A stretch of 26,153 nucleotides of DNA. Source: a virus. The position numbers and the translations under genes are program-made. Numbering within the stretch: the stretch's first letter is position 1; each line of letters opens with the position of its first letter. Shown piece after piece: positions 345 to 26,153 of the stretch. The DNA is taken from the UHGV virus genome UHGV-1407733; one strand, 5' to 3'. Below the pieces are notes generated by a model that saw only the letters and a list, made by a program, of their open reading frames with translations, ran no database searches and had not been told where the DNA came from.

Positions 345-983
345 TCAGGAGAATTTCATCATCATCTGCACTGCTACGCCGATTATCTTGCAGTTGCCGT
401 CGATTGGGATCAACGGATAGGCAGGGTTAAGCCCTTTCAGGTATTTGTTACCGCCATCAATGATTAGCTTCTTGAACGTGGCTTCATTAGCATCTGTCAG
501 CTTCGCAACTACCAGGCTTCCATTAACGCTTCCTTTCCAGTGTCGAACAGAACCAGCATACCCTCAGGAACGCTAAGGCCGGTAGGAGCTGTCATTGAGT
601 CGCCCTGAACCCTGAGCCAGAAGGCGTCACCGACAACGTGACAATCTGATTCATACCACTCATCCACTGCCTGAGGGTTGTACGGCTCTACGGCCTCACT
701 CCATGCACCTGCGCTAACCCAGCTAATCAACGGAAACTTTCCCCTGGCTTGTATTGTCCTGATAGTTGTCGCCAAAAAGCAGTTCTGCCGGAGCGACGCC
801 CAAAGCTTTAGCTATTACCTCTGCGTCATCAACACTAACGCTTCTGGTTCCTGATTCATAGTTGCCGATCCGAGATTGTGAAGCCCAGCCGCAAAGCTCC
901 GCCAGAGCCTTCTGTGAAAGCCCTTTATCTTCCCGTAATCGCTTGATACGCGCGGCGATAGTTTCTGTTCTGTTCATGCGCAT
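345..983 (-). CDS. cI: CI-type repressor (XRE HTH N-domain + LexA/S24 peptidase C-domain); frame interrupted twice
   Basis: N-terminal HTH (ORF 723..983) and C-terminal S24 domain with GDSM active-site motif (ORF 509..775). The true C-terminus (NGSLVVAKL...NGNCKIIGV) continues in a third frame to a stop at 345-347; this tail resembles P22 C2. Frame changes near 537 and 750. Confidence 0.85.
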
Positions 984-22228: not shown

Positions 22229-24333
22229 GTTTACCCGAAGGATTTGTTCTCGATAATCAGCCTGATAACTCACAGCTTCCTGATGGTTTTGTGCTTGATT
22301 CCCAACCAGAGCAGCAGCAATCACCTTTGGTTTCACCAGAGGAAAACTCCAGACAGGAAAATGTTGTTAATAATGCTAACGGCTTCGACCGTTTTATGTA
22401 TGGCGTTCTCAGTGGATTGATGGATGTTGGTAAAGGTGTTGGTCTATTTCAGGATATGACACCAGAAGAGCAAGCCGCAATTCAGTCTCTACAGCAGAAG
22501 TTAGCGGCAAAACCATCAACCGCACAAGATGTTGGTGAGTTCGTTGGACAAGCAGCACCATTTGTTAGTGGTGGTGGGATTATTTCTCAGGTTCCGAAAG
22601 GGGCGGCAAGGCTGGCTGCCGCCGCAGGGCTTGGTGCTGGAGAAGGGGCTATTGTAGCCAATGGAACAAATAGCGATGTTGCTTCTGGAGCTGCTATTGG
22701 CGCTGTGGCTGGCCCTGTAGCAGAGATTGTTGGTCCAGCGCTTGGGAAGATTGCAGGAAAAATTAAAAATAGTGCCGGAGATATTTATCGCTCATCCGTA
22801 GGGATGGGTAGTAAATCATCTAAAGCAACGTTAAAGAAAGCTGCTGGCGCAATGGACAATAAATTTATCGGCGGGCAACGAGCTATTCAAGATTTCGCCG
22901 ATGAAGTTAATCCTGATTTTAACGCGATAAATGCTATTCGTGAGCTAGAACTGGAAAATTATGCCACTCCAGGCATGATCTCTAATAATCCTGCTGTCAG
23001 GGCTCTTGATAATGCAGTGGCAAGTCTCCCTGGCACAGAGATTAGTGAGGCGCATAAGCGTTTTATTACTGAATTAGGAAGAAAAGCTGATGAAATGATA
23101 ACTTCATTTGGGGGAAGCCTTGATAAGCAACTGGTTTCTGACAGGCTTGCAGATAATTTTGATAAAACCATTTCATCATTACAAAATCAGTCAGATAACA
23201 TCTACAACAAAATTGCCGAAAAGGTTCCTGTAAGAGACCGGATTGAGCAACTAATACATTGAATTTTTTAGAGGATTTTGCTGATGATATAGGTGGAATT
23301 GATGAATTATCTCCAATAATGAAGCGGACATTGAACCGACTTGATCCAAACACCTTGCCAACGTATGGGCGTTTAGATCTCGCTAGAAAGCAGGTTGGAC
23401 AAGCTATTGGCAAAGGCTCTGGTCCATTCAAGGATGAAGAAACAGGTGTTCTTAAAAAGTTATATGCAGCCATAACAGATGACCAACAGGCTGTCGCAGA
23501 AAAATATGGCGCAGGGGAATTATGGACGCTTGGTAAGGAGTTGGTAAAAAAACGAAAATCCATTGAAGATGATGCCGTAACCGTTTTGGGTAGAAAACTT
23601 CAGCAATCAGCAATTCCAAAAGTTGAAAGTGCCGTTGTTAATATGGCAAAAGGAAACGGTGGTGACTTTAGGCAATTAATGAAGTCAATTCCAAAGGATA
23701 TGCGGCAGGAAGTTGCGCTCACCTCAATGAATAAAGCATTTACCAGCTATGCTAAATCACCAGGTCAGCAATTAGGGTTGATGGATTTGTAAAATGGTAT
23801 AACGGAATGTCACGCAATGGGGCCAATATGAAGGCTCTCCGTGATGCTATTGGCACAGATGCATCAAAGCGCCTTGATACGATTTATCAAGCAGCCAAGG
23901 CTATGAATAGACTCAATGCTGGTAAGCAGTATGCTAGCAGCCTTGTGGATCAGCAAGTTAATAACTTTCTGAAGGAAAAGGGTAGTCTAGCAAAAATTTA
24001 TGGAATAGCCTCAAAAGCTGCTGCGGCGGAAGGTGTTACAAGCTTATCTGGTCTTCCTGGTGTAGGTGCAACAGGGTGATAACGTCCGCATTGATGTCAG
24101 GGAAAACAAGCAGGATAAAGGCTGCCGATGCTCTACTGTCTTCTCCTGAGTTTAAATCAATGCTATTTCGCCTGCAAAACGCACCAGTAGACAGAGCAGA
24201 AGTGAGACGCGCAATAGAAAGGAAACTGATGCAATCTGGGGCATTTAAGAGATGGGAGAAAACCCTATCAACAGATGAAGCAAAAACCATTGCCCGCACG
24301 GGGATTATTACATGGCTCGCTAGTGACAGTTAG
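22213..24333 (+). CDS. Ejection protein, P22 gp16-like; frame interrupted about three times
   Basis: Four consecutive ORFs (22213..23262, 23259..23792, 23807..24079, 24076..24333) in rotating frames. N-terminus carries the tandem peptide repeat PEGFVLDNQPD / PDGFVLDSQPE. Last gene before the leftward accessory cassette, as gene 16 is in P22. Confidence 0.65.
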
Positions 24334-24556
24334 TCAACTTTGGTTATTTTGCCTTCTTTTTCTTGATGAACTTTGCATCCATCATCTTTTGATAGCCAAA
24401 CTAAAAACTTTAAAACCTTAAACACAAGTACGGATACTGTAATGAAAGCACCAATTGCAATTATTGCTATTGAAATTATTTGCATTGGTGCTTTTAATGC
24501 TGGGAAAACAGTGTAATGAGCGAAAAAACAGCAATTATGATGAGCCATTGCTTCAT
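24330..24556 (-). CDS. Small membrane protein; start and frame uncertain
   Basis: Track ORF 24330..24548 has one predicted TM helix (IISIAIIAIGAFITVSVLVF). A stronger start (ATG 24554-24556, RBS GGAGGA 4 nt upstream) opens a hydrophobic peptide MKQWLIIIAVFSLITL in another frame across an A6/T6 run (24523-24528). Confidence 0.4.
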
Positions 24557-24584
24557 GTTGTCCTCCCAGGTTTTATTGGTAAGA

Positions 24585-25145
24585 TCACTGCTTTATTTTG
24601 GTATCATGGGTTTCACTAGCGGCTTCCTTCGCAGTCGGCTCAGAAACCTTGAAGTAAGATTGAATCTGCGGAAGCGTTATGATTACCGCAAGCATAGCGA
24701 GAACCGCACCAACGAGCCATTGGGTCGCGGTCATGGATGTTTTAATGCCATCAATTTGGCCTTTGAGCCCTGCAACTTCGCCATTGCTAGCGAATATCTG
24801 TCCCTTAATTTCATTAAGCGACTGATTCATAGCTGTAAATTGCTTAGATTGGAATTCTCTGAAAGCTGAAATTTCAGCGCGCATGTTAGCAGATATTAAC
24901 TCAATTTCTGCTTTGTTTTGACCAAGCTTCGCGTCAATCTCTTCTCTTGATGGGCTGCCCATAGCATGCTCCTCAGTGTATTGTTTTCCAAGATAAGCGA
25001 TATTATTGTTTTTGGTTATATCATTCTTGGTAACTGGAGGCGAAGCATTGGACTTTTCTCCGAAGCCACCTGTCGACCCCATACGACCAAGTGTTCTCTT
25101 TTTCTCCGCTGCATGATCAGCATTTACGGCAGGAAAAGTAATCAT
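24585..25145 (-). CDS. Tail-anchored coiled-coil membrane protein (superinfection-exclusion candidate)
   Basis: Central coiled coil (AEIELISANMRAEISAFREFQSKQFTAMNQSLNEIKGQI) followed by a single C-terminal TM helix (WLVGAVLAMLAVIITL). An internal ATG near 24962 with RBS GAGGAG is an alternative start giving about 126 aa. Confidence 0.55.
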   Translation of the reverse strand: MITFPAVNADHAAEKKRTLGRMGSTGGFGEKSNASPPVTKNDITKNNNIAYLGKQYTEEHAMGSPSREEIDAKLGQNKAEIELISANMRAEISAFREFQSKQFTAMNQSLNEIKGQIFASNGEVAGLKGQIDGIKTSMTATQWLVGAVLAMLAVIITLPQIQSYFKVSEPTAKEAASETHDTKIKQ

Positions 25146-25152
25146 GGCTCTG

Positions 25153-25431
25153 TCAGCTTAATTTTTTTGATTCTTCGTGTTGAGAAACTATATACTTAGC
25201 CAGTTCAAGAAGTTGATTTTCACTCATGCGAATATTGGCAATTTGGTATCTAACTGGCTGAATCTCCTCATTATTAACCCAGTCTGAAACATGCTTAAAA
25301 AATGCTATTGAACCAAATCTTGCTCCGACATCCCCAAAAGACGAGTAAGCAAATCCATCAGCATACTCATTTACAGCATCACTTGAGTCCTTGAAGATGG
25401 TTTCTTTGAAGTTCACTTTGGTATCTGTCAT
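25153..25431 (-). CDS. Hypothetical protein (92 aa)
   Basis: ORF starting 3 nt after the mnt-like stop with AAGGA RBS (translationally coupled); no TM helix, no recognisable motif. Confidence 0.55.
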   Translation of the reverse strand: MTDTKVNFKETIFKDSSDAVNEYADGFAYSSFGDVGARFGSIAFFKHVSDWVNNEEIQPVRYQIANIRMSENQLLELAKYIVSQHEESKKLS

Positions 25432-25433
25432 AT

Positions 25434-25683
25434 TTATTTATCCTTACCATACATGGTCTTTAGCGTCTCAACATCGCGTTCAAGATCTATCAATCGTGAT
25501 GCTATAGTTGCAAGGTCTAGTGCTTGAATGTGTTTATTTTTTTCGGTCCACGCTTCAAGTGCCGGCGACCATCTCAGCATTTAATGAACGAGAATTAGCC
25601 TCAGCCAGTTCAATAAGACGTTCCTTTATCTCTACAGGAAGCCTCAGATTCACTTGAGGGTTTTTGTACTTACGATCAGACAT
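25434..25683 (-). CDS. mnt: Mnt-like ribbon-helix-helix repressor; frame interrupted once
   Basis: N-terminus NPQVNLRLPVEIKERLIELAEANSRSLNAEMV fits the Arc/Mnt RHH pattern. The C-terminal coiled-coil part (LEAWTEKNKHIQALD...TLKTMYGKDK) is in the adjacent frame, with a shift near 25560. Confidence 0.65.
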
Positions 25684-25788
25684 CGGCGCATCCTGAATAA
25701 TTTTTTACCACAGGATATGTAGGTATCTATTGACTATCAATGCGTACCTAAATACTATGTATGCGTACCACATACAACGGAGGATGCA
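25684..25788. promoter_or_regulatory. Divergent Pmnt / Pant promoter-operator region
   Basis: Rightward -35 TTGACT (25730-25735), 17-nt spacer, -10 TACTAT (25753-25758), then RBS GGAGGA before arc. Inverted repeat TAGGTA...TACCTA and direct repeat GCGTACC flank the promoter elements. Confidence 0.6.
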
Positions 25789-25929
25789 ATGAAGGTAAAA
25801 ACACTGCGTATGCCAGAGAAGCTAGAAAAAATTCTTGAAGAAAAAGCAAAGGAAGAGTGTCGCTCATTCAGCGCAGAAGTAATTAAACGGGTGCTGGACA
25901 GCCTGAGGAGAGAGGGGATAACGGTGTGA
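25789..25929 (+). CDS. arc: Arc-like ribbon-helix-helix repressor
   Basis: 46-aa ORF MKVKTLRMPEKLEKILEEKAKEECRSFSAEVIKRVLDSL matching the Arc/MetJ RHH pattern; below track cut-off. Confidence 0.7.
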   Translation: MKVKTLRMPEKLEKILEEKAKEECRSFSAEVIKRVLDSLRREGITV

Positions 25930-25944
25930 TTCGCTTGGATGCGG

Positions 25945-26027
25945 CAAAGAAATCAAAACAGTGAAGCCCCAACTGCGGGAACAGTCAGGGCTTCGGTATC
26001 GTAAAACCACGCATAGGAATTAACGAC
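25945..26027 (-). ncRNA. Sar-like antisense RNA region (arc-ant intercistronic)
   Basis: Reverse-strand hairpin GAAGCCC-N18-GGGCTTC followed by a U-rich tract (TGTTTTGATTTCTTT), antisense to the ant ribosome-binding region. In P22 the sar antisense RNA occupies this position. Confidence 0.35.
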
Positions 26028-26153
26028 ATGAAAAGTATAGCAACAGCAGTATCTACTATCAATGTACCATTCCACGGCGCAGAGCTTTATGTTGTCAATC
26101 ACAACGGCGAACCGTATACCCCAATGAAACCTATCGTTGAGGAATGGGGCTAG
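26028..26153 (+). CDS. ant: Antirepressor Ant, N-terminal fragment (runs off the window; frame interrupted near 26140)
   Basis: MKSIATAVSTINVPFHGAELYVVNHNGEPYTPMKPIVE resembles the Ant N-terminal domain. The in-frame TAG at 26151-26153 looks like a frame-change artefact, since the adjacent frame reads ...VEGMGL. Confidence 0.55.
   Translation: MKSIATAVSTINVPFHGAELYVVNHNGEPYTPMKPIVEEWG

Follow-up and report, generated by a model that had tools for sequence, protein, structure and literature searches.

A probable CUS-3-type secondary immunity (immI) module in a P22-like prophage, with an operator specificity likely to differ from that of P22

A 26,153-nucleotide stretch of the virus genome UHGV-1407733, called the window below, was analysed with regard to its right end (positions 25434-26153), which holds a leftward mnt homologue, a spacer with predicted divergent promoters, a rightward arc homologue, a sar antisense RNA on the minus strand and the 5′ end of ant. 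The first-pass annotation had read this region as an immI-like module made up of mnt, divergent promoters, arc, an antisense RNA and ant, and we located all of these elements at or near the positions it assigned. Its layout stands for the elements themselves but not for two of the reading frames, as mnt is not a single open frame (an extra G is present) and ant does not run off the end of the window (a TAG closes it at 26151-26153).

The window corresponds to the right arm of a P22-like (Lederbergvirus) phage or prophage, with the primary repressor region at one end and the beginning of ant at the other. In the former, cI lies in pieces on the minus strand (509-983), together with cro (1088-1303) and cII (1363-1701); it is followed by the replication, nin, Q, lysis, terminase, portal, coat, head-completion and ejection genes. 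The nearest named phage is the E. coli K1 phage CUS-3, which covers 63% of the first 25 kb at 95% identity. Collinearity with the window is shared by HK620, Kapi1 and many E. coli prophages, and for CUS-3, HK620 and Kapi1 it extends from the replication to the ejection genes. The gp16-like ejection gene ends near 24333, and the module lies in the variable 'ant moron' of the P22-like late operon, the stretch between this gene and the tailspike gene where immI is also annotated in P22 and epsilon34. In relatives carrying the same module the tailspike gene follows ant; here the right flank lies beyond the end of the window.

The mnt homologue was placed at 25434-25683 on the minus strand from the open reading frames and by alignment. 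It has 83 amino acids in the relatives and is split here into two ORFs, one of 42 aa for the N-terminal part (25555-25683) and one of 48 aa for the C-terminal part (25434-25580). The RHH protein starting from 25683 begins MSDRKYKNPQVNLRLPVEIKERL. Aligned with EC28, ISHS7 and CUS-3, the window shows a G too many at 25564/25565 (all relatives have GTGCCGCGAC, the window GTGCCGGCGAC), and this 1-bp insertion interrupts the gene after codon 39. The intact relative of the protein matches the Pfam family Arc (PF03869, 3.2e-10), the best PDB match of Mnt is the Mnt repressor (1MNT, E=3e-5), and it matches phrog_795, the family of P22 Mnt, at 6e-27. It is 34% identical to P22 Mnt. As to homology, the reading of a leftward Mnt-like RHH repressor is therefore borne out by the Pfam Arc and 1MNT matches, while the gene as written is not intact. 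In the N-terminal strand of the protein, Q10/N12/R14 align with H6/N8/R10 of P22 Mnt, and it may be noted that Q/N/R is the triad of P22 Arc.

The arc homologue (25789-25929, plus strand) is an intact gene for a 46-aa protein and the first gene of the ant operon, with its Shine-Dalgarno sequence GGAGG at 25779-25783. Its product exceeds the cut-off of Pfam Arc (PF03869, 1.2e-7, 31.9 bits against a cut-off of 20.4) and matches the Arc repressor in the PDB (E=0.004), which agrees with the Arc-like rightward RHH repressor proposed earlier. The identity with P22 Arc is 33%, and the corresponding ORF in the relatives is labelled Arc family DNA-binding protein by RefSeq. The strand residues V3/T5/R7 align with Q9/N11/R13 of P22 Arc, the six-residue N-terminal arm being absent here. 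Following published work on Arc and Mnt, the aligned strand residues of both proteins are presumably the base contacts.

Only the 5′ end of ant is present (26028-26153, plus strand), preceded by the Shine-Dalgarno sequence AGGAA at 26015-26019. The gene has 307 codons in the relatives, where the frame continues ...VEGMGLDWKSQ...; here it ends at the TAG of 26151-26153 because one G is missing from the run at 26141-26142 (GAGGGAATG to GAGGAATG). The 41-aa fragment scores 30.7 bits with P22_AR_N, equal to the cut-off, and the full-length 307-aa Ant of a relative (99% identical) matches both P22_AR_N (5.7e-45) and P22_AR_C (5.8e-30). Because P22_AR_N is found in the fragment and both domains in the relatives, by its profile matches the domain is of the P22 Ant type and not KilAC. 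An Ant-like antirepressor was thus correctly recognised in the first reading, and the Ant/KilAC-type domain expected further downstream is present in the full-length relatives as P22_AR_N plus P22_AR_C, but the frame is not open to the window end. Identity to P22 Ant amounts to 58% in the Ant of the relatives, whose last 100 residues are almost the same as in P22.

To judge the two broken frames we compared the window with its relatives. Against CUS-3 there are at least 15 isolated 1-bp indels in the 16.6 kb aligned; of 15 such indels, 12 are deletions, 13 lie in homopolymers (mostly 3 to 2) and 14 fall inside genes. The genes broken in this way include O, Q, both terminase subunits, portal, scaffold and head-completion genes, and cI is split too. 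A viral contig with 99.7% identity (L017) departs from the window over 1.9 kb by three substitutions and as many single-base indels, and E. coli EC28 departs from it in the immI region by one substitution and two indels. The 29-mer of the frameshifted mnt has no match in viral, genome or metagenome collections, and the intact 28-mer occurs in 34 viral contigs; neither the mnt nor the ant lesion was seen in any relative or public copy. Errors in the sequence, and not biology, are the most likely source of both frameshifts, since the ratio of indels to substitutions is about 1, the lesions look like homopolymer under-calls and they are absent from public copies. Taken as written, however, both frames are broken, along with cI, O, Q, terminase, portal and others, so the module could also be read as the genuinely inactivated relic of a cryptic prophage in decay that lost ant and then let mnt decay, with arc and sar intact. 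In P22 genetics a prophage that lacks mnt is stable only when ant is dead as well, and a pair of mnt-null and ant-null lesions is biologically coherent. Degraded ant morons are known in P22-like phages, for example in HK620 and Scho1 (PMC2629481). Yet nearly every lesion is a single-base change in a short homopolymer, deletions being in 4:1 excess, and an indel to substitution ratio of about 1:1 against a 99.7%-identical relative is far from what natural divergence gives and typical of long-read or flow-based sequence left uncorrected. Moreover, the aligned parts are without IS elements or large deletions, and neither lesion recurs in public copies. We therefore consider real decay unlikely and retain sequence error as the explanation. 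With about one single-base indel per kilobase, the broken frames of this window should not be taken as biology.

The spacer between mnt and arc (25684-25788) measures 105 bp as opposed to 90 bp in P22. A consensus scan predicts Pmnt on the minus strand at 25712-25740 (-35 TTGATA at 25740-25735, 17 nt, -10 TATCCT at 25717-25712; 9/12), 29 nt upstream of the mnt ATG, a position that agrees with the P22 geometry. Pant is predicted on the plus strand at 25730-25758 (-35 TTGACT at 25730-25735, 17 nt, -10 TACTAT at 25753-25758; also 9/12). The scan returned 4 sites where 2.5 +/- 1.6 are expected, which is not above chance, so the case for these promoters rests on geometry and conservation and not on the count. 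The -35 hexamers of the two predicted promoters abut and overlap, whereas in P22 the -10 of Pmnt sits on the -35 of Pant, and the predicted start sites are about 60 bp apart here as against about 37 bp in P22. As the promoter geometry differs in this way, control of Pmnt by Arc may differ from P22.

Several repeats lie over these promoters. An imperfect palindrome of 39 bp (25716-25754; 18-nt arms, 78% complementary) is centred on the shared -35 region and holds TAGGTA in the Pmnt spacer (25720-25725) and TACCTA in the Pant spacer (25745-25750). A second palindrome of 19 bp, TGTATGCGTACCACATACA (25758-25776), spans the predicted start of Pant, the position of Omnt in the annotated P22 record. 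The 9-mer ATGCGTACC occurs just twice in the 26-kb window, at 25740-25748 and, 21 bp away and inside the 19-bp palindrome, at 25761-25769. The spacer also contains a 21-nt direct repeat, and the overlapping divergent promoters and repeat elements noted at first reading are thus recovered in 25684-25788 as predicted sites, this direct repeat and the inverted repeat with 18-nt arms. Across about 30 distinct relatives, a block of 70 bp (25707-25776) hardly varies. It is kept in SEN22, where the overall identity is 80% and the predicted Pant is conserved, and also together with SEN22-type arc alleles whose codons differ and which retain the N-terminal strand MKVKTLRMP.

We take the 39-bp palindrome over the shared -35 region as the likeliest target of Arc, and the 19-bp palindrome as a candidate operator that would correspond by position to Omnt. 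The reading of the repeats as operators is supported by other immI types with the same Ant family, in which phased, repeated sites likewise occur within the spacers of both promoters and at the start of Pant; for example, one type whose Arc and Mnt have the strand PLGIRIP in common carries two copies of CACGGTGTAG, 21 bp apart. No natural recombinant joining the window-type Mnt to another Arc or the reverse turned up among 80 Ant-anchored viral contigs, window-type Mnt and Arc always occurring together with the same spacer, so the operators are not assignable to Arc or Mnt by recombinants. Two contigs that looked like linkage-breakers (L009 and L040) were rejected as such, a second mnt gene being present upstream in both.

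The P22 operators Oarc (ATGATAGAAGCACTCTACTAT) and Omnt (AGGTCCACGGTGGACCT) gave no match in the window with up to three mismatches allowed; the 70-bp block stands in their place. Given this absence, the 33-34% identity of Arc and Mnt to their P22 counterparts and the differing strand residues, the operator specificity is likely to differ from that of P22. This agrees with the earlier suggestion that both proteins are unlike P22 Arc and Mnt in sequence and probably differ in specificity. Judged by sequence, the immI of the window is probably a heterospecific allele, the missing operators setting the P22 specificity class and not the kind of module. A MAFFT alignment of the spacer DNA to P22 was meaningless in the operator block, and the comparison of the spacer was therefore made through the annotated P22 features.

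A more radical view of the same block is that the CUS-3-type immI is a rewired, heteroimmune switch, in which Arc and Mnt would share their tasks, and Pmnt would be controlled, in a manner unlike P22. Three phased sites with a GTAYC core, 21 bp apart, lie one within the spacer of each promoter (Pmnt and Pant) and one at the start of Pant. These might replace the two unrelated operators of P22, and Mnt bears the Q-x-N-x-R strand of P22 Arc. We hold such rewiring, with the three sites in place of the P22 operators, to be unlikely if conceivable. A switch that works in the P22 manner remains our preferred interpretation.

The sar antisense RNA lies on the minus strand at 25955-26027, and its Rfam match runs from 26026 to 25960 over two hairpins. 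RF00262 scores 76.6 bits (gathering 43, E=4.2e-16) over model positions 1-68 of 68 and is not truncated, in support of the Sar-type antisense RNA proposed for the arc-ant spacer. A 78-nt stretch of the minus strand folds at -29.8 kcal/mol (z = -5.0; none of 200 shuffles as stable). The terminator consists of a 14-bp GC-rich hairpin (25994-25963) followed by a U tract (ACTGTTTTGA; UGUUUUGAUUU; ACUGUUUUGAUUU). The loop of the 5′ hairpin is UUCCU, complementary to the Shine-Dalgarno AGGAA of ant, and the match covers the complement of AGGAA and stops one base short of the ant ATG (26028). Psar is predicted at 26034-26062 on the minus strand (-35 TTGATA, 17 nt, extended -10 TGcTATACT; 10/12 with TG). 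It is the best promoter match in the region and lies inside codons 3-12 of ant, the extended -10 in codons 3-5. The predicted start of sar is 7 nt downstream, at 26027, the base preceding the ant ATG, as in the annotated P22 Psar. The sequence TTGCTATACT is kept in P22 and epsilon34 despite differing neighbouring codons of ant. RF00262 was also matched at the corresponding position in P22 (97.8 bits), epsilon34, CUS-3 (84.6 bits) and the E. coli prophages M15 and EC28; it had no match in SEN22, which has a different ant.

On aligning five sar sequences (MAFFT and RNAalifold) no compensatory pairs were seen, the terminator stem being invariant and the 5′ hairpin misaligned, so the sar structure rests on the Rfam model and on single-sequence folding. 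An invariant stem with no compensatory changes among the relatives compared would also suit a mere terminator or structural element of the arc-ant spacer from which no regulatory antisense RNA is made. Against this, the whole 68-position sar model fits, including a 5′ hairpin whose sequence differs from P22, and a strong extended -10 promoter is kept at the exact P22 distance within divergent ant codons. Further, the U tract is found on the minus strand only; the plus strand has GGTATCG after the hairpin, and therefore the hairpin is not a terminator of arc. We regard the terminator-only explanation as highly improbable and treat the element as sar.

When set beside named systems, the region resembles P22 immI in gene order, orientation and place in the late operon, in its Arc-family RHH repressors, in a sar that belongs to one Rfam family with that of P22, shares its geometry of Psar and terminator and overlaps the ant ribosome-binding site, and in an Ant with P22_AR_N and P22_AR_C. 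Apart from the spacer, it differs from P22 in having about 30 additional nt between arc and sar, and in that sieA and orf59a of P22 are replaced by other leftward genes. In epsilon34 mnt, arcO/Pant/Pmnt, arc, sar, Psar and ant are annotated in the same layout and the sar region is 82% identical to the window, whereas the repressors and operators are of P22 type.

The closest copies are of the CUS-3 allele. CUS-3 itself (CP000711) carries the same allele with 95.5% identity from mnt to ant, and in E. coli EC28, TUM1887 and MRE162 the identity rises to 99.6%, with all three genes intact in chromosomal prophages. Mnt, Arc, the operator block, sar and the N-terminus of Ant are essentially equal in CUS-3, the E. 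coli prophages and the window. The differences are that mnt and ant are intact in these relatives and frameshifted in the window, and that in CUS-3 a Cys-rich ORF of 67 aa (phrog_7150) is added between arc and sar, and a second, P22-type mnt downstream. The GenBank record of CUS-3 names mnt and ant and neither arc nor sar, and on the E. coli chromosomal copies RefSeq gives two Arc-family proteins and an antirepressor. A comparison published in 2008 described CUS-3 as apparently without arc and as possibly controlling ant in another way (PMC2629481). CUS-3 does, however, contain an unannotated 46-aa arc as well as the sar match of 84.6 bits. This is a small correction and not a discovery. A literature search found no experimental work on the CUS-3-type specificity class.

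Because of the homology of the four products, their order and orientation, the structure of sar and the geometry of promoters and terminator, we consider it very likely that 25434-26153 represents the immI region of a P22-like prophage, of the CUS-3-type allele and working much as in P22. As a type the module is textbook material, and the allele is already present in the published phage CUS-3 and in E. coli chromosomes, being common among E. coli prophages.

The working of P22 immI has been summarised elsewhere (PMC2629481, PMC8022706), and by analogy the following course may be proposed. In the lysogen, Mnt made from Pmnt would occupy the operator at the Pant start and keep arc and ant silent. 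Upon infection or derepression Pant would become active and yield Arc and Ant, of which Ant would bind and inactivate the primary repressor of cI/C2 type. Arc would then close Pant (and Pmnt) through the operator or operators in the shared promoter block. With rightward transcription stopped, Psar within the start of ant would make a sar of about 70 nt, whose loop may pair with the ant ribosome-binding site and block translation of leftover ant mRNA. In this scheme we infer the assignment of repressors to repeats, the activity of the promoters and the target of Ant.

The significance of the module beyond annotation is slight. It does show that the CUS-3-type ant moron, once called arc-less, holds a complete mnt-arc-sar-ant switch with a specificity probably distinct from P22. 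At least five Arc/Mnt strand types are joined to one Ant family, and immI alleles of differing specificity form a natural set of orthogonal RHH repressor/operator pairs. Such differences may also shape which prophages induce each other.

Two intact leftward genes lie downstream of mnt, namely orf92 (25153-25431, minus strand), which starts 2 nt past the mnt stop, and orf186 (24585-25145, minus strand), which codes for a coiled coil and a C-terminal membrane segment. They match phrog_4231 and phrog_5820, both of unknown function, and a weak CCDC90-like match was obtained among the two; neither these genes nor the Cys-rich ORF of CUS-3 had a match in PADLOC. The tight junction of mnt and orf92, and weak sub-threshold Pfam matches to FitA-like RHH, RHH_5 and HicB, could suggest that the leftward RHH protein is an antitoxin paired with orf92. 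It could likewise be taken for a plasmid-type partition or CopG regulator and not an Mnt-type repressor, as PHROG and RefSeq name such proteins 'partition protein ATPase'. However, the same mnt allele precedes unrelated genes in EC28, ISHS7, CUS-3 and SEN22, and since unrelated genes follow the same mnt elsewhere, mnt is not paired with orf92. Also, mnt is always divergent from arc-sar-ant, its best solved relative is Mnt, and its family phrog_795 is that of P22 Mnt, which is itself labelled 'partition ATPase' in records, so that this name is a propagated misnomer. Kinship with Mnt, variable neighbours and a constant divergence from arc-sar-ant led us to reject the toxin-antitoxin or partition reading of the RHH genes, which we find barely credible. 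There is no terminator-like site between mnt and orf92/orf186, and in other prophages with the same mnt different genes occupy this place. The genes orf92 and orf186 are probably co-transcribed cargo of the ant moron, lying outside the switch itself.

Across the 80 IMG/VR contigs anchored on Ant (L043-L122) a single Ant family is accompanied by at least five types of Arc/Mnt N-terminal strand, each with a spacer of its own. Examples are KVKTLRMP/PQVNLRLP, QRKVRFP/PQLRIRLP, KILVRMP/PTTVRIP, PLGIRIP (Arc and Mnt alike) and PQFNLRWP, which is the P22 type. The spacer of one type, whose Arc and Mnt have the recognition strand in common, contains two copies of one 10-mer at a distance of 21 bp. Different types also meet within one prophage, as mnt genes of different types stand in tandem in CUS-3 (L001 2217-2746) and in the contigs L009 and L040. 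CUS-3 has one mnt of the window type and one of the P22 type; in L009 and L040 the window-type mnt has another mnt upstream. The extra, orphan Mnt could protect the lysogen against Ant from superinfecting phages of other immI specificity. On the promoter side, the predicted -10 of Pant (equivalent to window 25754) reads TGCTAT rather than TACTAT in two contigs (L032 and L033), in which the 19-bp palindrome is also altered in its right arm (equivalent to 25771); this may be a Pant-down variant.

Three leftward genes (24330-25431, minus strand) separate mnt from the gp16-like ejection gene, where P22 instead has sieA and orf59a. They are orf92 (25153-25431, minus strand; phrog_4231), which starts 2 nt past the mnt stop, orf186 (24585-25145, minus strand; phrog_5820), which encodes a coiled-coil protein with a membrane segment at its C-terminus, and a gene for a small two-TM protein, which is 75 aa long in the relative L039 and whose start is altered in the window by a deletion at 24517. 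For these three genes no Pfam family scored above threshold and PADLOC gave no matches. They are likely cargo expressed by the prophage, possibly with a role in exclusion or defence.

Isolated 1-bp indels occur about once per kb over the whole window when it is compared with close relatives (for example at 2614, 4255, 6480, 7054, 7162, 10786, 12029, 13502, 14732, 15050, 15456, 18580, 19338, 24077, 24517, 25564 and 26142), and the majority are homopolymer deletions. The genes disrupted include O, ninH, Q, those for the small and large terminase subunits and the portal, and scaffold, head-completion and ejection genes. This pattern looks like uncorrected sequencing error, and therefore any broken ORF in the window is suspect. 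The window also contains the cI-type primary repressor, which Ant presumably targets, in two pieces (509-983, minus strand), an HTH part at 723-983 and an S24-peptidase part at 509-775; this split is again consistent with a frameshift.

In CUS-3 the stretch L001 2855-3255, labelled in GenBank only as 'bsq2 boundary sequence', contains a window-type arc of 46 aa, a sar match of 84.6 bits, and a 67-aa Cys-rich ORF (CCFCG...CSDC; phrog_7150, function unknown) that overlaps the arc stop by ATGA but is absent from the window. The phage records NC_002371, NC_011976 and NC_028696 in RefSeq, and PHROGs 795 and 2685, give Mnt homologues, P22 Mnt included, the label 'partition protein ATPase', which for an 83-aa RHH repressor is a propagated misannotation.
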